This document shows, piece after piece, positions 42,001 through 48,000 of a stretch of 64,000 bases of DNA; within the stretch, counting starts at the first letter, position 1; the number at the start of each line of letters is the position of its first letter. Made by a program: the position numbers. The stretch spans positions 1,952,001-2,016,000 of the forward strand of contig OY970208.1 of assembly GCA_963713865.1 (NCBI GenBank), read 5' to 3'. The DNA comes from an uncultured candidate division Zixibacteria bacterium. Lineage in GTDB: Bacteria; Zixibacteria; MSB-5A5; RBG-16-43-9.

Positions 42001-45000
42001 CTTAAAACTTGATTAATTAAGGGTTCGTCCTCAGGAAAAATCTGAGAATAGTTTTTGTTGATTACCTCATTTCTTTTCAGCGAAAATAGTTCTTCAGCCA
42101 CTGGATTGAAAACAATTATACTTTTATTTTTATCCACAGCCACAACCGCATTATTCATTCCTTCTAAAACATTTCCGGTTAGAGTTCTGATCTCCTTATA
42201 AGATCTATCCAGGACAAAATAGCTTTGATTGACCATCACTATTCCAATAAAAAGTAAGCCTAAGAAGAAGAGGATAAGGCTGAAAAAGAGGATTTGTCTC
42301 TGAAAACTTTTCGAGACTTGACTATACCCCTCCAGGGATAGTCCTATGCGGAATACCCCCGCAGGAAATCGATCTGATATGAAAGGCTTTACCACTTCTA
42401 AGACCTTTCTTTCCTCGAAAGGCGTCACTCTGCTTTTAGTTTCATTTTTCAAGAGAGCTTCTAAAAGGAAAGGGTCGTTTTCGAGCTTCAGCATCTTTTC
42501 CACCTTTTTAGAGGCAAATACAATCCCCTCTCTGGATTGAAGAACTATATATTCTATTCCGCTCTGCTGGCTAATATTCTGGATCAGATATCCGATTCCG
42601 ATCTCCTTCTGGAAATTCTCCATATAAGCAGTTGGTGATATGACTGCAATTCCACCTTGACCTTTAGACCTTCTTAAGACCACCACATATTTCCCCTCTG
42701 AAAGTATTCCATCTCCTTTTATTTCAAAAGCTGTCTCCTGGATTTCACCTTTTAAAACCTTCTCTGATTTAGCAAAAGAGAAATGGGCAGTATCGGCATA
42801 AATTTCTAATTCTTCTGGATGACTGCTTTTGAAAATCTTTCTATTTATGTCCAGAAGATCAATTCTCGACAATGAATTTCTTCTGACCAGTTCCTCTAAC
42901 TTAGAATTGGTTAAAATACCGTCTTTATCCATCTGATCAACCAATTTAGCAACATCCAAAAGCCTCTCTGTAACTAATTCCTCTAATAGACTGTTGGCTT
43001 TGACCGTATTCTGGCTGGCTAAAACTAAGCTCTCTAAAAGAGCCTCCCCCTCTTTTTCCATCACCTTCAGCATATTCGATTTGCTCTTCTCGATACTGAA
43101 AAAAGCAATTAAAAATAAGAGCGAAGCAAAAAGAAGGGTTAACAGGATAACATATCTCAGCCTTAAGCCGGTTAAGAATCTTAGACTTTTCAGCTCAGCC
43201 AATTTTTTTCTCCTTTTGATAGAGTTAATTTAACTCCAAATAAATTAAGTGTCAAGATATATGAATTTGGAGAATGTAGTGTCAGGCTGTAGCCTTCCTT
43301 CTAACCATCTATATATCGTAAAACCAGCGAAGATCTGCAGGGGCGAACCGATAGGTCACCCCTACAACGACCGTCAAAAAAAGAAAACAAAAAAACCGAC
43401 CCCATAGATCAGTTTTTTTGTTAGCCAGACTACCTCTTTTTATCTGATCAGAAGCATTTTCTTGGTTTCAGAGTAATCTTTTGAGTTCAGTTTGTAGAAA
43501 TAGATCCCACTGGATACATCAAATCCCTTTTCGTCTTTTCCGTTCCAGGTAGCAATATAATTTCCCGCCTCCATCTCCTCGTTCACCAGATTTTTAACTT
43601 TCTGTCCGAGTATATTATAAACTGAAAGCTCAACCCTGATCCTCTTCGGTATGGAGAACTTAATCTGAGTAATCGGATTGAACGGATTCGGATAGTTCTG
43701 GAACAGAGCGAAAACCTTAGGTACAGCTCCCTCTTCCTCACGAACCGACGTAACCATAACTGGAAGCTCAACCGAAGGTTCACTAATGTTCCCTGAGAAA
43801 TCAATGGCAGTTAGCTTGTAATAGTAATTACCATTCACCAGGTTAGAATCTACATAATCGGTATTAGCAGAGTATCCGATCCGGTTAGAAGGAGATGGTG
43901 TGAACCCGGATGTGGTGCTACGATGGATAACAAAATAGTTAAGATCAGGATCCGGAGACTGGTTCCATCTCAGCTGAACATTGCGTCCCAGAATCAGGGC
44001 TGCAAGTCCTGTAGGAACGGCAGGAGCTAAATTATCTACGGAATAACCGCTATCCGGTAAAGATTCGTAGAAAGTCCCGGGATCTGCAGTATGGCCTGAT
44101 ACGTATAAGATGGTCCAGTGCATTCCGGAAACGATAGTAGAATCATAAAGGGTTGGAGCTACGTAACCATAGCGATCATGATGTGTGGCTGGTATGGAGC
44201 CTAAGAAAGTCCAGACCGTTCCCGCTACTGAGATTTTCGCACCAAGTTTCAACTCGGGGTAGGATGAGAGCATCTTCTTAAAGGTATCCACTTCTTTTGC
44301 CAGAATCTTTGAGTTGTAAGAATCATCTCTTCTCCAGATACCGTAACTGGTAACTGGATGGTCGATATCATCCTCGCCCGCAAACATATTCCAGAGGATA
44401 CTTACTTGTTTACCCTGATCGTTAGGCACATCCGAGATCTCCACGATGTCTCCGGCCTGAGCTTGAGCTGATATCCTTTTGATAGAATCCCATAAAAGTT
44501 TTTCAGCATAGGCTGGGTTGTGCATACCCTTGCTGCCGTCTAACTCTACGAAGTAGTAATTGTATGCCCCGCCCTTCTCGGTAATAGTCAGAAGAGGATC
44601 CAGGTGGTTTCTGACTGCGCCTGTGGAATCTTTAGGAAGTAATGTACCCAGAGAGTCCAAAACTGTTTCGACTTTGGCTTGAGCTGTCCTCAGGAAGACA
44701 AGGCTCACACTACCATGACATCCTTTGCACCCCCCGTCATTTAAGATATCATCTGTAGAGTCATCCGGAGTACCATTATCAGAAAAAACTGCAAAGGTAT
44801 GCCCGCCCACTTTAGTGACAAGAGTATCTGCTGGAGATACTGCCATATGACAGGTTACACATTTATCAGCCGCATAAGTATGGCTTCCAACCGGGTATAT
44901 TTCATTGGGATAGTTATACCCGCTCTTTCCTTCCAGCATATCTGACTGGTGCGAATGGTGAAGCCCACGACTGCTTACTCTTAACTTGTGACAATCGTAG

Positions 45001-48000
45001 CATACACCGTATAATTGCGGTCTCCTGAGCTGGTGCAGATTCTCAGCACTATGAGGATCGTGACAGGCTGCACAGGTAACCCCTTCTACCAGCTTATAAG
45101 GTGCCGCAGAGGACTGTCCATCTATGGTCTCATGCAAATAACCTTGAGCAGTATGACACCTGGCGCAGTTAGTGCTATTCATATGTTCAGGATCTCCAGG
45201 TTCGCCTGCTGACATCGAATGTCTGGAGAAATCCCATTGATAAGGGAATATATGATGACCCGAATCATGACATGCAGCGCAGACACCGGAATTAAGGCTA
45301 ACACCGATCCTGTTGTACCTATTCTCACCGCCGTGCCGGCTGCCCGGACCATGACAGTTTTCGCACTGGATATTAGCTAAGTTAGCCAGATCTGGATAAT
45401 TAACCACCATAGAGTCAAAATTACCCGGCTGCAAAGTGGTCGGGAAAGTCCAGCCTAATAAAGCTGCCACATCGTCAAAGCCATAGTTGTTTGCTGCAAT
45501 GTCTTGATCATACCCTACTGTGTGACAGCTAATACAGTTTGGACCATAATGGGTGCTGACGATTCCGTCTATGCCCCTTTGAAACATAGAGGCGTGACCA
45601 GTCTCCTCCCATTCGGCAACCTTATTGTTATGGCAGAAAAAACCGCACTGGGGCCAGTGAGGAGTCATTCCACCAATTTGACCTGTACCTACCCACGTTC
45701 CAGCGCTAATATACATAGTGTCCGGATTACTCGTGCCTGCACTTCCAGTTATTACCAGGGTAACGATATAAGTTCCCTCTAAATCCGGAACCATAGTTGG
45801 ATTCTGAATGGCAGCGTTACTTAAAGTAGTTGATGAACCAATCGGTTTGGCAAGAACCCAGATATAAGTATAAGTGTTAGTATCACCAGGATTAGATGTA
45901 AAATAAATTTTACTACCTACACCTACATTCGGCAATCCGGTAGAAGTTCTAAGCAGGGTAGTGTCTACAGTAAGGTCTCTGGGCGAATAGGCTAAAAGTC
46001 TTACCTTAGCCACCGGAACTGCAGCTAAAGAGAATTGAAAACTAAAGAGAAGTAAAAAAACATTAAACAAGAAAACTTTGCCAACTTTCATTATATTCCC
46101 TCCTTATTGATTGTTGAGCGATTCATTGTCTAAAGTATAATTTTTCTGAATCACCTCCTATTTAGTTAACAATGTTGAAATTTAATGTTTGAGGAATTCA
46201 TTATCCCTTGATTGTAAGTCGATGTAACCAATGAACATACCTGTCAAAAGACCAGCTCAATAATCATACTTGACAATTATAATCTCTTATATCTAATTTG
46301 TCAAGTATTATTTAGGGCAATGTTATAGCAAGATTAAAATGTCCTAATTTCTACAAAGTTAAAATGTCCTGTTTTCATGTTTTAGTTAATAGTAGCTTTT
46401 GTTCTTTTTGTTCATAAGGTCTATATTGTGAATTAACCTTAAACTTCCGCCAGGGATGATCCACTGGAGGTATATAAGCCGTTTTGAGTTTTAATATGGG
46501 TAGTTTTGGAGTTTCTTTTTCTCTCTTAGGCCTGATGATAATCTCTTTAAACTTCAAGATGGTATCTTTATAGGTAATTAGCATAGAGCCATCTATCATA
46601 TCTTCTACTATCACATTGTTAGTTCTTACATTATCCTTTATCTGATAGAGCCTGTTATTATGCGCTACCGTGAAGTCGTTCCTTAAAGCCCTTTCGGTCT
46701 TAAAGCATAGTATTCGATCCAGGTTAAGAGCTATGGGAACAGGTCTATGAAGATCAAGCTCTTCTGCCGCCCTAAAGCTGAATCGCTTATTATATATGGG
46801 CAGGTAGTATCTTAAGAGTCGATTGGCTTCTTCTATGGTCTTAATACCTCTTAGCCTCATCTCCTTTATTAGGCGATCCTGGAAAGTCCTGAATTGTCTC
46901 TCTATCCTCCCCTTAGCCTGAGGAGAATGGGCATAGATAATCTTAACTCCCAATTCCTTAAAAGCTCTGGCAACCTCACTCAACGGCTCTATTCCCTTAA
47001 GCTGGTCTTCTATAGAAGGCTTCTTAGTTGATTTATATGTGGTATGCTTGTCTAAATATATGCTCAGCGGAATACCATATTTTTTGATATAACGTTTAAA
47101 ACTGTCCATAGCTGGAATGGTGCCTTCATAAGGATAAAATCTTGCAAAGACATTACCGGTAGCGTCATCCACATAACCCATAAGAACACATTCCGGACCC
47201 CTGCTCTCCAGCCAATCATGATGAGAACCGTCCAGCTGGATCATCTCGCCAAAATAACGCCTCCTCTGACGCCACTGACGATGAGCCTTTCTCTTTCGAC
47301 CCCGGTACTCTATCCCTTTCTCCTTGAGCCAGTTCCTTAAGGTCTCTCGACTTAAACCTATCTTGTCTATCTCTAAAAGCTTCTCTGTCGCTAAGGTCGG
47401 ACCAAATCCTGCATATCTCTCCTCATAAAGCTCAAGAACCCTTGTCTTTATCATATCCGGTGTCATATTATGCGATGGTTTTCCTCGAGATCTGTGGACT
47501 ATACCTCGGTCGCCTTCTTCTATCACCCGCTTTATTATTCTTCTGACCTGCCTATCGCTTAAACCTAATATCCCAGCTGCCTCTACTTGAGTTAAACCCT
47601 TGTCAATTGCCTGGTGAATCACATTTATCCTCTTTAGCTCCTCCTGGCTCATCTTTATTATGTCCTTCCCTGCCATAATATCCTCCTTTGGAAAAAGATA
47701 CTATGGCAATCTCTAAATAGGACATTTCTGCTTTGCTAAAACAGGACATTATTATATTGCGATTACAGTATTATTTAGGGCAATTCTTAGAAATTACCTT
47801 TCTCAAAAAAGTCAAGAGCTAAAACTTTTGCTTTGCCTGAGTGATTCTCTTCTTACTTTAAACTATTTAATTTTGACGAGTAAATCTCTAACCCCTTAGA
47901 TTTGGTAGTTACAACTGAAACTCAGTATTTCCAAATTCATTAGAAACCTAAAGAGTCATTTTTCACCTTTCCCCTCCTTGGTTTCAAATTAATTTGAGTC

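Follow-up and report, generated by a model that had tools for sequence, protein, structure and literature searches.

The minus-strand gene at 43440..46091 of a 64,000-nucleotide stretch of contig OY970208.1 (the window), from an uncultured candidate division Zixibacteria bacterium, encodes an 883-aa multihaem cytochrome ending in a type IX secretion system (T9SS) sorting domain, and we somewhat favour the reading that it is exported by the T9SS and acts as a terminal reductase in extracellular electron transfer. This reading rests on domain architecture, homology, conserved residues, machinery genes and conserved neighbourhoods, from which we infer export, anchoring, haem loading, the direction of electron flow and the acceptor. 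The survey's finding that we followed up had proposed a multihaem T9SS cargo for the cell exterior; this core is upheld by a C-terminal domain (CTD) above two curated cut-offs, 47 CTD-bearing ORFs, SprA, PorU, PorV and a PorZ-like protein, a clade-wide fusion and electron-transfer neighbourhoods, whereas the MtrC/MtrF family, octahaem count and rarity attached to it had to be given up. Precise literature searches on T9SS and multihaem cytochromes found no paper linking both, and the survey's null result for papers holding both 'type IX secretion' and a multihaem cytochrome was reproduced (a repeat search with 'multiheme' returned 0); we found no description in print of a nonahaem redox protein as T9SS cargo.

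Gene and domain layout

The ORF was confirmed on the minus strand, with its stop codon at 43440-43442, and lies among the following features:

46276..46304, minus: sigma-70-type promoter-like site, 12/12 consensus positions (consensus match only)
43440..46091, minus: gene of the 883-aa, most likely nonahaem cytochrome with a T9SS type A CTD (P0001; ORF, motif and Pfam/NCBIfam matches)
46023..46091, minus: signal peptide, aa 1-23, Sec / signal peptidase I type (read from the translation)
45702..45989, minus: PKD/Ig-like N-terminal domain, ~aa 35-130 (sub-cut-off Pfam match and profile search)
44457..45689, minus: OcwA-like cytochrome module, aa 135-545 (haem motifs, PDB and profile matches, alignment)
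44028..44447, minus: middle domain of unknown family, aa 549-688 (identity to a dockerin-bearing ORF)
43773..44027, minus: Fn3-like domain, aa 689-773 (PDB 3mpc 'Fn3-like protein', E 3.6e-5; 5z06 by profile)
43443..43724, minus: T9SS type A C-terminal sorting domain, aa 790-883 (TIGR04183 and PF18962)
43386..43422, minus: terminator-like hairpin and T-run directly 3' of the stop codon (consensus match only)
41157..43202, minus: sensor histidine kinase (sCache/PAS/HisKA/HATPase; Pfam, NCBIfam AtoS-like partial match)
39659..40996, minus: sigma-54-dependent response regulator (REC, AAA+, HTH_8; Pfam, NCBIfam)

The translated N-terminus, in which a basic start is followed by a hydrophobic run and S-L-A ahead of aa 24, reads as a Sec signal peptide, and there is no lipobox Cys because every cysteine falls within haem motifs. 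The PKD/Ig-like domain is kept in every form of the cytochrome family; Pfam K319L-like_PKD scores 24.7 bits on the 883-aa protein, under its cut-off of 27, and passes that cut-off in three relatives (L055, L056 and L064), and a profile search matches the PKD domain of 6nz0. The cytochrome module closes with a C-terminal helical part that carries a DGSxGxHN motif. The middle domain at aa 549-688 gave no Pfam match and only unnamed Atlas clusters; in combination with the Fn3-like domain it matches, at 44% identity, a section of a 911-aa ORF of this genome that bears a dockerin, and it is probably a spacer. At the C-terminus, the Pfam scores of the survey were reproduced (Por_Secre_tail, PF18962, 30.9 bits against a cut-off of 27; FlgD_ig 28.6 and CHU_C 24.5 bits) and were joined by NCBIfam TIGR04183, the T9SS type A sorting domain, at 38 bits against a cut-off of 23 (aa 800-880).

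The promoter-like site lies ~185 nt upstream of the ATG, just inside the boundary of an IS element that stands 228 bp upstream of the gene, and the hairpin after the stop codon suggests that the cytochrome gene is transcribed alone. The sensor kinase and the sigma-54 response regulator are possibly regulators of the cytochrome, a role considered because the adjacency of kinase and sigma-54 regulator is conserved in relatives; members of the response regulator cluster occur within 10 kb of the cytochrome at 20/81 loci, the window counted, and the region upstream of the cytochrome gene at the host locus yielded no -24/-12 element. DNA runs with the labels freshwater sediment, wetland and sediment hold contigs that are 90-99% alike and span most of the gene; RNA evidence is weak, being confined to short contigs from one metatranscriptome, where DNA carry-over is possible.

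Haem sites, family and distribution

Eight CXXCH motifs, as the survey had counted, were located on the translation at aa 186, 243, 271, 309, 340, 364, 411 and 455, and a ninth site, C-X3-CH, occupies aa 149-154; these nine motifs account for all 18 cysteines, while shuffled versions of the protein (n=2000) held a mean of 0.0125 CXXCH and a maximum of 1. As the first site is CXXCH in 50/58 aligned relatives and CX3CH in the other 8/58 (the lineage of this cytochrome), the protein is most likely nonahaem and not octahaem as had been concluded, with haem attachment at CX3CH assumed.

By sequence and profile comparison, the cytochrome falls within the NrfA/c554 superfamily, in its OcwA/OmhA branch. 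Its nearest solved relative is OcwA (6i5b_A; E 1.4e-14 with the single sequence, 3.1e-35 with the family profile), followed by OmhA (6qvm_A; 7.3e-11 and 1.5e-22), and an OcwA fold with a three-helix bundle is predicted. Profile matches extend to NrfA (E ~3e-11) and the octahaem nitrite reductases (~1e-5 to 1e-6), Pfam Cytochrom_C552 reaches E 0.15, and the 883-aa protein has no CXXCK, the active-site signature of NrfA. The MtrC/MtrF-like identity given by the survey had a sound basis in Pfam Mtrc-MtrF_II-IV_dom (PF22113), which scores 36.0 bits against a cut-off of 30 (alongside Cytochrome_C554 at 41.2, Cytochrome_C7 at 35.1 and Paired_CXXCH_1 at 29.2 bits), but we rejected it as a family placement, since the solved relatives are OcwA and OmhA and no MtrC, OmcA or MtrF chain was among the PDB matches; the sole Mtr-complex chain matched was 6r2q_A (E 2.7e-5 single sequence, 2.6e-8 profile). 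The His-His dyads at aa 279/280 and 378/379 align with OcwA HH281/282 and HH380/381, which an excerpted account places over two five-coordinate haems (PMC6703420). Across 58 sequences, H378 and M416 do not vary, and conservation of H280 reaches at least 90%.

A full-length orthologue at 82% identity, the only one the survey had seen, was found again (L011), and it has ample company: a scan of species genomes returned 517 relatives of the cytochrome. Among kin the gene is patchy, the module being present at E<=1e-30 in 6/285 genomes of the class, host genome counted. Of the best 80 of these 517 relatives, 41 carry the CTD, and the labels of the carriers are all FCB-group or unclassified, save two doubtful MAG labels. 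On a tree built from the cytochrome module alone, the CTD label requires 2 changes, where shuffling gave a mean of 16.3 (0/500 shuffles went as low as 2), and 35 CTD forms fall in one starred clade; judged from this tree, the CTD fusion is old and maintained. In a hand-picked sample, SprA was found in 5/5 genomes with CTD forms vs 0/5 with CTD-less forms.

Export, electron transfer and alternative readings

The CTD of the cytochrome shares 44-57% identity with the C-termini of ~37 other ORFs in the same genome, and an HMM built from 39 such C-termini identified 47 CTD-bearing ORFs in the 2.7-Mb genome. SprA (733 bits vs a cut-off of 200), PorU (583 vs 420) and the PorV family (220 vs 90) are encoded, and a PorZ-like protein matches its model at full length with 226 bits, under the cut-off of 260. 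PorU, the sortase by which the CTD is removed and cargo attached, has its frame broken by one extra base in the host assembly; in 7/7 relatives whose match is not truncated at a contig end it is a single frame, so this break may be an assembly error. The T9SS looks incomplete: neither PorK/L/M/N (GldK/L/M/N) nor GldM domains were detected in the host genome, GldL/M/N models having no positive control, and GldM was not found across 151 genomes of the phylum. The GldL/M/N models may be too narrow, as they are blank even in five other genomes that possess SprA. The FGE-sulfatase domain, which is the PorK fold, was absent from the host genome and 4 relatives in a search that was positive in control genomes. 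Haem machinery is represented by below-cut-off matches to CcmC, CcmE and CcmF and a weak CcmB-like match. With these components, the precursor would be exported by the Sec system and receive haem in the periplasm from the Ccm system; the folded holo-protein would then be recognised via its type A CTD and cross the outer membrane through SprA/PorV, after which PorU/PorZ would fix it to the surface or it would be released.

In one relative (L010) that holds a 76% orthologue, the genes that come after it on the same strand encode a 9-haem protein, a 416-aa barrel candidate, a 14-haem protein, a Rieske protein, cytochrome b, subunit IV, a 9-haem protein and a 17-haem protein. All but the 17-haem protein have 63-87% orthologues elsewhere in the host genome, where they are dispersed and the cytochrome gene adjoins neither the porin-cytochrome nor the Rieske/cytochrome b genes. 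Among the 23 CTD-form loci flanked by at least 5 kb on each side, another multihaem gene is present in 16/23, a barrel with a 12-14-haem gene in 10/23 and cytochrome b in 8/23. The partner trio of the host comprises a 14-haem periplasmic protein, a 412-aa barrel candidate and an 8-haem lipoprotein; the 412-aa protein has no Pfam or NCBIfam match, and its candidate barrel fold is suggested by an Atlas lead ('Beta-barrel porin 2', 0.98), a weak TbuX match (E 0.0029) and composition. We picture a route that would begin with quinol oxidation by the Rieske/cytochrome b complex and its membrane-anchored nine-haem subunit; the porin-cytochrome trio would carry the electrons across the periplasm and outer membrane, and the exported OcwA-like cytochrome would deliver them to acceptors that are insoluble or bulky, for example Fe(III)/Mn(IV) minerals, humics or a partner cell.

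Surface fixation, the anchoring suggested by the survey, is one of two possible ends to export, as type A cargo may also be released, and in some Bacteroidota many such proteins go into the medium. A released cytochrome, mediating in soluble or matrix-bound form between the cell surface and acceptors at a distance, would fit the frameshifted PorU and the sub-cut-off PorZ-like protein and deserves some weight as a minority reading; it is disfavoured by the intact PorU of the relatives, by the resemblance of the middle and Fn3-like domains to the stalk of a surface-held protein, and by the other 46 CTD-bearing ORFs, which rely on the same machinery. That the CTD is non-functional, in a T9SS without motor and ring, and the cytochrome a periplasmic electron carrier, we hold to be very improbable: the failure to detect PorK/L/M/N in the host and GldM in 151 genomes of the phylum speaks for it, but 47 ORFs that keep so similar a CTD argue for selection on a working signal, SprA, PorU, PorV and the PorZ-like protein are retained, and the GldL/M/N models may simply miss their targets. 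Excerpts of the literature also have T9SSs as thought to exist in Ignavibacteriota (PMC11285876).

Given its superfamily, which includes NrfA, ONR and HAO, and its profile matches to NrfA and octahaem nitrite reductases, the protein could instead be an exported or periplasmic N-oxide enzyme (a nitrite, hydroxylamine or NO reductase or detoxifier) whose two open-coordination haems are catalytic, rather than a mineral reductase. Both His-His pockets are conserved, and OcwA, in an excerpted report, reduces nitrite and both reduces and oxidises hydroxylamine, albeit with a nitrite turnover of just 1 per minute (PMC6703420). This reading is improbable in our view, since CXXCK is lacking, export, spacer domains and a CTD would have no rationale if the substrate were soluble, and in relatives the gene has porin-cytochrome and quinol-oxidising complexes around it instead of nitrogen-cycle genes. 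The same hardware might also run in reverse, the exported cytochrome drawing electrons out of Fe(II), reduced minerals, a cathode or a syntrophic partner; they would travel through the conduit to the Rieske/cytochrome b complex, which can run both ways. Multihaem conduits are reversible in principle, and published work covers MtoAB-mediated mineral oxidation and a reverse-run Mtr pathway. The sequence gives no hint of direction, but OcwA and OmhA, the sole relatives to have been characterised, both work in Fe(III) or anode reduction, and we give uptake a slim chance. The terminal reductase remains our preferred reading.

Comparison with known systems

Excerpted descriptions present OcwA (Thermincola potens) and OmhA (Carboxydothermus ferrireducens) as cell-surface multihaem cytochromes and report that OcwA reduces iron oxides in vitro (PMC9250108, PMC6703420). 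OcwA (TherJR_2595, PDB 6I5B, Thermincola potens JR) resembles the cytochrome in its nine haem sites, its two aligned His-His dyads, an NrfA-like C-terminal part that aligns up to chain residue 500, and a site at the cell surface beyond the cytoplasmic membrane, predicted in one case and, by the excerpts, shown or predicted in the other. It differs in its monoderm host and its length of 526 aa vs 883 aa without PKD, spacer domains or CTD; the haem 1-3 region is unaligned, with a beta-sheet insert at aa 75-156 of OcwA in the published description, as excerpted (PMC6703420), the first haem site of our protein is CX3CH, unlike that of OcwA, and the single-sequence similarity is modest. OmhA (6QVM), an S-layer-associated member of the OcwA clade, likewise has two five-coordinate haems but carries eleven haems and an extra N-terminal two-haem extension, again on an excerpted account (PMC9250108); its host is Gram-positive and it lacks a CTD. 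With NrfA, the pentahaem nitrite reductase, the C-terminal five-haem part and helical end align, whereas the cytochrome has no CXXCK, four more haems and extra domains.

In its proposed niche, the cytochrome matches MtrC, OmcA and MtrF of Shewanella, outer-surface terminal reductases of a diderm that use a secretion system of their own and stand beside a porin-cytochrome conduit; the excerpted source has these outer-membrane cytochromes reach the surface via the T2SS (PMC7096707). They pair the T2SS with an N-terminal lipid anchor, in place of a T9SS CTD without lipobox Cys, and are decahaem, and the OcwA-type haem design differs from their staggered cross (PMC6703420, in excerpt). The partner trio recalls the Geobacter-type Pcc (OmbB-like) layout of a periplasmic 12-14-haem protein, a ~410-aa barrel candidate and a multihaem lipoprotein, the barrel being set beside OmbB by this layout. 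Pcc clusters are known from Ignavibacterium album, Melioribacter roseus and Ignavibacteria MAGs; in the texts of the two source reports, 'secretion' has 0 occurrences and no T9SS-tagged OcwA-like cytochrome next to the cluster is mentioned (PMC7399161, PMC4245776). With the classical T9SS type A cargo of Bacteroidota (gingipains, chitinases, adhesins), the cytochrome shares a Sec signal, a type A CTD at the extreme C-terminus and the company of SprA, PorU and PorV; its host lies outside Bacteroidota sensu stricto, with no PorK/L/M/N detected, and the passenger here is a redox protein with nine predicted covalent haems.

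Architecture and haem sites of the cytochrome

The observation of an 883-aa cytochrome carrying a type IX secretion system (T9SS) C-terminal sorting domain (CTD) was confirmed: the open reading frame (ORF) lies at window positions 43440..46091 on the minus strand, and the Pfam scores given earlier for its product were obtained again, identical.

Segments of the protein encoded at 43440..46091, minus strand
aa 1-23: signal peptide, read by eye from the translation
about aa 35-130: PKD/Ig-like domain
aa 135-545: cytochrome module
aa 549-688: middle domain without a family
aa 689-773: Fn3-like domain (PDB 3mpc, E 3.6e-5)
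aa 790-883: CTD

Judged by eye, the N-terminus has the basic n-region, hydrophobic core and S-L-A of the signal peptide claimed for it in the survey, and reads as a signal peptidase I type signal. Because no cysteine lies outside the nine haem motifs, which hold all 18 cysteines of the protein, there is no lipobox. The middle domain matched only unnamed Atlas clusters (0.92-0.94), with other leads below 0.9. Together with the Fn3-like domain (aa 549-773) it shares 44% identity with a 911-aa ORF of the same genome that ends in a dockerin type I domain (L101:495-3230; G000:C1:1851495-1854230, minus strand), which makes this part of the cytochrome a reusable extracellular module.

All eight CXXCH motifs of the survey's octahaem protein are present (aa 186, 243, 271, 309, 340, 364, 411 and 455), compared with a mean of 0.0125 and a maximum of 1 in 2000 shuffles of the protein. 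The count nevertheless most probably falls one site short, as a ninth motif, C-X3-CH at aa 149-154, aligns with CXXCH in 50 of 58 relatives; CX3CH itself occurs in 8/58, namely the window lineage and a few others. Exactly nine CXXCH are found in 65 of 80 family ORFs (the best 80 of 517 relatives). Motifs with 2-4 spacer residues are counted as haem sites in the field, according to the part of PMC7399161 available, and haem attachment at the CX3CH site is assumed here.

To place the module, the PDB was searched with the single sequence (phmmer) and with a family profile (alignment A1, 58 members). The best matches were 6i5b_A (OcwA; E 1.4e-14 by phmmer, 3.1e-35 by profile) and 6qvm_A (OmhA; 7.3e-11 and 1.5e-22), after which the profile, matching 20 distinct sequences in all, found NrfA (about 3e-11), then octahaem nitrite reductases and MccA. 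In the accessible portion of PMC9250108, 6I5B is described as OcwA, a cell-surface nonahaem cytochrome of Thermincola potens that reduces iron oxides in vitro, 6QVM as OmhA, an S-layer undecahaem cytochrome of Carboxydothermus ferrireducens, and cytochromes of this type as clade 3 of the NrfA/c554 superfamily. From what is available of PMC6703420, OcwA has a His-His dyad (281/282 and 380/381) above each of its five-coordinate haems 2 and 5, haem 9 has His/Met coordination, the C-terminus forms an NrfA-like three-helix bundle, and the protein reduces nitrite and both reduces and oxidises hydroxylamine.

Both OcwA dyads (252/253 and 351/352 in chain numbering) align exactly with HH279/280 and HH378/379 of the window protein, so that the His-His dyads over two haems, predicted to be five-coordinate, are shared with OcwA. 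At the level of sequence, the alignment runs to OcwA residue 500 and includes the DGSxGxHN segment. Across the 58 aligned sequences, the Cys and His positions of all nine motifs are invariant, as are H166, H253, H291, H347, H378, H404, M416, H431 and H524, and H280 is conserved in at least 90%. Given the nine sites, the dyads, the conserved ligands and the PDB matches, we place the protein in the OcwA branch, as a nonahaem member, and its assignment as an OcwA-type nonahaem cytochrome with a type A CTD is very probably right.

Two other memberships were rejected. MtrC, OmcA and MtrF have ten haems, two pentahaem domains alternating with two beta-barrel domains, and a lipoprotein signal, whereas the window protein has nine sites and no lipobox cysteine; the MtrC/MtrF-like character proposed in the survey comes down to a partial PF22113 match (aa 334-463), and no MtrC, OmcA or MtrF chain was among the PDB matches. 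As to NrfA, a search of the 883-aa protein for its active-site motif CXXCK found none, and Pfam Cytochrom_C552 matched at only E 0.15.

The sorting domain and the type IX machinery of the genome

The CTD is recognised by TIGR04183 (38 bits, cut-off 23; aa 800-880 of 883) and PF18962 (30.9 bits, cut-off 27), bearing out the survey's assignment. The last ~100 residues of the protein match, at 44-57% identity, the C-termini of ~37 further ORFs in its 2.72-Mb single-contig genome (G000). BLASTP found the CTD in 41 ORFs, in 39 of them at the very end, and an HMM built from those 39 matched 47, whose median length is 681 aa. Among the nine ORFs in the genome that have at least two CXXCH motifs, the 883-aa cytochrome alone has the CTD. 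One further cytochrome gene, encoding a 194-aa tetrahaem protein (L096:5741-6325; G000:C1:2272741-2273325), has a CTD-bearing ORF on either side, one for a subtilisin-like protease and the other for a 205-aa protein.

The translocon and attachment complex are represented in the genome by SprA/Sov, PorV, PorU (frameshifted in the assembly) and a PorZ-like protein, and genes for System I cytochrome maturation are present as well.

Secretion and maturation components matched in G000
SprA: 733 bits (cut-off 200)
PorU: 583 bits (cut-off 420)
PorV-family protein: 220 bits (cut-off 90); 896 aa, immediately after PorU
PorZ-like protein: 226 bits (below the cut-off of 260); full-length match
PorW/SprE-like candidate: 79 + 42 bits (cut-off 250); possible only
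CcmC, CcmE, CcmF and a weak CcmB-like protein (System I): C1:1769230-1773306; all below cut-off

In PorU, a single additional base relative to G208, a genome of the same genus, divides the gene into two frames that overlap (L092:12536-12564; G000:C1 ~1614536-1614564), whereas the gene is one frame in all seven relatives whose match is not cut by a contig end. Either the assembly is in error here or cargo attachment has a genuine defect. Models for GldK/L/M/N and the two GldM Pfam domains (TIGR03513, TIGR03517, TIGR03523, TIGR03525, PF12081, PF12080) had no match in G000, and a search for GldM in 151 genomes of the phylum and in five further carrier genomes, these five all with SprA, also found nothing, so that the models are perhaps too narrow. 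For the FGE-sulfatase fold of PorK (PF03781), G000 and four relatives had no match, while three control genomes were positive. Such positive controls exist for PF03781 only; since the GldL/M/N models matched in no genome searched, their silence is weak evidence of absence. The T9SS of this genome and its relatives may lack the canonical motor and ring, or its components may be too diverged for the models. That PorL/M and PorK/N were not detected weakens the claim to a canonical T9SS and leaves that to a T9SS-type signal unaffected.

The channel of SprA has room for folded proteins. T9SSs are considered to exist in Ignavibacteriota and other FCB phyla, in the parts of PMC11285876 and PMC5837995 available. 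Export of the cytochrome by a T9SS-type pathway is, in our assessment, probable.

Relatives, gene neighbourhoods and control

The survey had found only one orthologue of the cytochrome, at 82% identity. That orthologue (locus L011) was recovered; its uniqueness was not, for a scan of one genome per species yielded 567 candidate stretches, 517 of which encode a relative, and the best 80 of the 517 were retained for analysis. In a protein database, 1836 proteins matched at E<=1e-20 (7999 candidates scored), under names such as 'T9SS type A sorting domain-containing protein', 'multiheme c-type cytochrome' and 'predicted CXXCH cytochrome family protein', and the cytochrome module alone matched 2055 of 1.84 billion cluster representatives at E<=1e-3, 1023 at E<=1e-10 and 264 at E<=1e-30. 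In the window's own class the module is patchy (6/285 genomes, G000 included), and it occurs in four of the eight other genomes of the family.

With the genome-built HMM, a C-terminal CTD was found in 41 of the 80 locus ORFs (best 80 of 517), in 118 of 120 proteins among the matches listed from the protein database, and in 49 of 141 new cluster representatives. The metagenome-assembled genomes (MAGs) with CTD forms are labelled Ignavibacteria, Bacteroidota, KSB1, Rhodothermales, Calditrichota, Latescibacterota and Gemmatimonadales, and a few labels, e.g. Terriglobales and Deferribacteres, are doubtful. Sorted by the length of the tail after the conserved helical end, the CTD-less forms comprise a bare core (Acidobacteriota, Chloroflexota and Desulfobacterota-like MAGs) and a core followed by a different C-terminal module of ~155 aa (Verrucomicrobiota, Binatota). 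This module, which ends in ..TPTR..(Q/M)(F/Y)(F/Y)RV.. (..FYRV..), is seen in L052, L053, L057, L058, L063, L065, L069, L070, L072, L078-L080 and L083; Pfam gave no match for the two forms scanned (L052, L057), and it might be a lineage-specific sorting or anchoring domain. A shorter second paralogue of the cytochrome stands in tandem, directly downstream of the main gene, in L012, L013, L015, L019, L020 and L066; the one scanned (L015:13044-15017, 657 aa) has its own T9SS CTD (Por_Secre_tail, 28.5 bits).

On a maximum-likelihood tree of the cytochrome module alone (58 rows, 445 columns, quick IQ-TREE method), the CTD label requires two changes, compared with a mean of 16.3 after shuffling (0/500 shuffles as low), and 35 CTD forms fall within one starred clade. 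Because kin share labels, we take this as clustering and long retention of the fusion, not as independent events. Among hand-picked genomes, SprA was found in all five with CTD forms and in none of the five with CTD-less forms.

Neighbourhoods were compared by clustering the ORFs (minimum length 90 aa) that lie up to 10 kb from the gene at the 80 loci and in the window, with cluster representatives annotated. In an Ignavibacteria MAG with a 76% orthologue (L010), eight genes follow the cytochrome on the same strand; seven have orthologues in G000, where they are dispersed over two other regions.

Genes following the cytochrome in L010, with the G000 orthologue of each
437-aa 9-haem protein: C1:2409366-2410745, 63% (orthologue with 8 CXXCH and, by eye, a lipoprotein-like signal)
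416-aa protein without a family: C1:2408131-2409369, 74%
350-aa 14-haem protein: C1:2407093-2408130, 75%
Rieske protein: C1:2319040-2319588, 78%
cytochrome b: C1:2318254-2318997, 87%
b6f subunit IV-like protein: C1:2317599-2318093, 78%
418-aa 9-haem protein with a C-terminal hydrophobic anchor: C1:2316346-2317602, 75%
668-aa 17-haem protein with a NapC/NirT-like N-terminus (L010:19870-21876): no G000 orthologue found

The L010 cluster also holds a 383-aa 13-haem protein (L010:6591-7742) for which no G000 orthologue was found. Two more distant relatives at 40-44% (L022 and L017) have the same neighbours as L010, and L017 has in addition, directly upstream, a CcmF-like gene, a histidine kinase, a sigma-54 activator and a single-domain response regulator. 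The kinase of L017, a Bacteroidota MAG, lies two genes upstream of the cytochrome (L017:6234-7760) and has one CXXCH where the window's kinase has none; it could be a haem-c redox sensor.

Neighbours within 10 kb, at loci with at least 5 kb on both sides (CTD forms, n = 23; CTD-less forms, n = 19)
another multihaem gene: CTD forms 16/23, CTD-less forms 14/19
barrel-candidate cluster: CTD forms 10/23, CTD-less forms 0/19
12-14-haem cluster: CTD forms 10/23, CTD-less forms 1/19
Rieske: CTD forms 7/23, CTD-less forms 2/19
cytochrome b: CTD forms 8/23, CTD-less forms 3/19
sigma-54 regulator cluster: CTD forms 10/23, CTD-less forms 1/19

The barrel candidate, a 412-aa protein (G000:C1:2408131-2409369) grouped with the 14-haem periplasmic protein and the 8-haem lipoprotein as a porin-cytochrome trio, has a signal peptide, no hydrophobic helix and 16% aromatic residues, and in its relatives the last residue is F or W. 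The closest Atlas cluster bears the name 'Beta-barrel porin 2 family protein' (0.98); the single sequence had no match in the PDB, and its family profile had one weak match there, to the outer-membrane barrel TbuX (E 0.0029). It is a probable porin. Geobacter-type porin-cytochrome clusters are already known in Ignavibacteria, in the accessible parts of PMC7399161 and PMC4245776.

In the window, the cytochrome gene itself looks monocistronic, since a predicted sigma-70-type promoter-like site (12/12 match) lies ~185 nt upstream and a predicted terminator-like hairpin directly follows the stop codon. Gene order agrees with that at L011 (ABC-F ATPase, cytochrome, histidine kinase, sigma-54 regulator). 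The sigma-54 consensus is TGGCAC-N5-TTGC; with up to two mismatches it occurs 24 times in the window, where chance would give 26. Although an activator gene lies near the cytochrome gene, control of the latter by sigma-54 is unsupported, with no -24/-12 match upstream, between its ATG and the insertion sequence (IS) described next.

This IS of ~1.45 kb (window ~46320-47768) lies 228 bp upstream of the cytochrome ATG and is not in the orthologous loci L011 and L009. It encodes an ISNCY-family transposase (46375-47676, minus strand; 391 bits, cut-off 250) and is present in four copies of at least 99.4% identity in G000; contigs from two metagenome runs have loose ends at 46321, the same boundary. 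As the promoter-like site stands between the IS and the gene, the insertion need not silence the cytochrome. Short contigs of metatranscriptome X20 are 85-99% alike to parts of the gene, e.g. over 244 nt of the CTD region with 3 differences; DNA carry-over is possible in these data, which give no expression level and in which uncovered stretches carry no information.

A proposed route for electron export and its relation to known systems

With the architecture, homology, conserved ligands and pockets, signal, machinery genes and conserved gene company established, the following route can be proposed. The cytochrome would be exported by Sec, with haem attached by Ccm in the periplasm; its CTD would then be recognised, and the folded holo-protein would be translocated by SprA/PorV and either attached by PorU/PorZ or released. 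A quinol oxidase of Rieske protein, cytochrome b and a nonahaem cytochrome would feed the porin-cytochrome conduit, whose outer cytochrome would hand electrons to the exported OcwA-like protein, and extracellular acceptors would be reduced, as has been suggested for OcwA, at either end of the haem chain, by the two haems with open coordination. What points to a cell-surface location and to activity as a reductase of Fe(III) oxides or electrodes is the CTD together with the gene neighbourhoods, and on balance we lean slightly towards the cytochrome being the terminal reductase of an extracellular electron-transfer chain.

The gene neighbourhoods bear on what the enzyme would do. An N-oxide enzyme would fit the reactions of OcwA with nitrite and hydroxylamine, but OcwA turns over nitrite slowly, at 1 per minute, and the neighbours in the relatives point to electron export, making this quite improbable. 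We give equally little weight to reverse flow, in which the protein would take up electrons, the sequence being compatible with either direction. With respect to location, the split of PorU in the G000 assembly leads us to keep release of the protein, instead of anchoring, as an alternative that is unlikely, if less so than a reversed or N-oxide function; retention in the periplasm owing to an incomplete T9SS is very unlikely, because the genome has 47 conserved CTDs.

Our preferred reading, delivery of an OcwA-type reductase by the T9SS, can be extended to other lineages. Tentatively, and with rather less conviction than for the reductase role, we suggest that the T9SS may be a general and as yet unrecognised route in the FCB superphylum (Ignavibacteriota, Bacteroidota, KSB1, Rhodothermota, Calditrichota, Latescibacterota and Gemmatimonadota) by which fully haem-loaded respiratory cytochromes are placed on or beyond the outer membrane, the OcwA-like nonahaem terminal reductase leaving through SprA by means of its CTD and being fed by a porin-cytochrome conduit, also in lineages like the window's that lack a recognisable PorKLMN.

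The mechanism of extracellular electron transfer has been worked out for only a few Proteobacteria and Gram-positive bacteria, and we know of no account of how Ignavibacteria and other FCB bacteria expose a terminal reductase. Anodes and iron-reducing sediments have repeatedly yielded these bacteria, as stated in the part of PMC7399161 available. If true, the proposal would provide a testable FCB pathway, running from a bc-type quinol oxidase through a porin-cytochrome conduit to an exported nonahaem reductase. A redox enzyme with nine covalent cofactors would join the cargo of the T9SS, which bears on the capacity of the SprA translocon, and one cytochrome core would carry lineage-specific surface-targeting modules: a CTD in FCB phyla, the ~155-aa module in Verrucomicrobiota, and none in Acidobacteriota and Chloroflexota. 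An OcwA-like module combined with a CTD would also be a simple genomic marker for predicting electron-transfer capacity in metagenomes.

The survey's remark that no paper links type IX secretion with multihaem cytochromes holds in our literature search (main texts without supplements, most subscription journals lying outside its coverage). With the same partial coverage, T9SS and extracellular electron transfer were joined for oral vesicles only. A sorting domain and 'multiheme' came together only in a review of methanotrophic archaea, OcwA and Ignavibacteria only in nrfA ecology, and OcwA and a secretion system in PMC7829351 and in PMC7096707, the latter of which, in its available part, concerns type II secretion. 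Looser searches listed papers on either the T9SS or cytochromes alone and have no bearing on novelty. Papers on the T9SS in Ignavibacteri-, represented mostly by their titles, included none about cytochromes. A study of Melioribacter respiration (PMC5492636) makes no mention of secretion, outer membrane, porin or extracellular; PMC7323717 does not mention Ignavibacteri, Chlorobi or Fibrobacter, nor bioRxiv 10.1101/2025.05.29.656830 secretion, sorting, Bacteroid or PKD. The existence of OcwA homologues in diderms is already known, since PMC7829351, in the part available, places OcwA in a subclade of nonahaems from Gram-negative bacteria; no mention of their T9SS tag or of their place beside porin-cytochrome clusters was found in the searchable literature, the supplementary trees and alignments of PMC7829351 and PMC9250108 lying outside the search. 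In databases, many of these proteins already bear the label of a T9SS sorting-domain protein; the novelty therefore lies in the functional reading and not in the sequences.

At the level of sequence the protein is no surprise; if true, the proposal is a notable and directly testable extension both of the T9SS cargo range and of the known designs for extracellular respiration. Among diderms, the nearest functional analogy is Shewanella, in which, according to the available part of PMC7096707, MtrC and OmcA reach the cell surface by the type II system and a lipid anchor.
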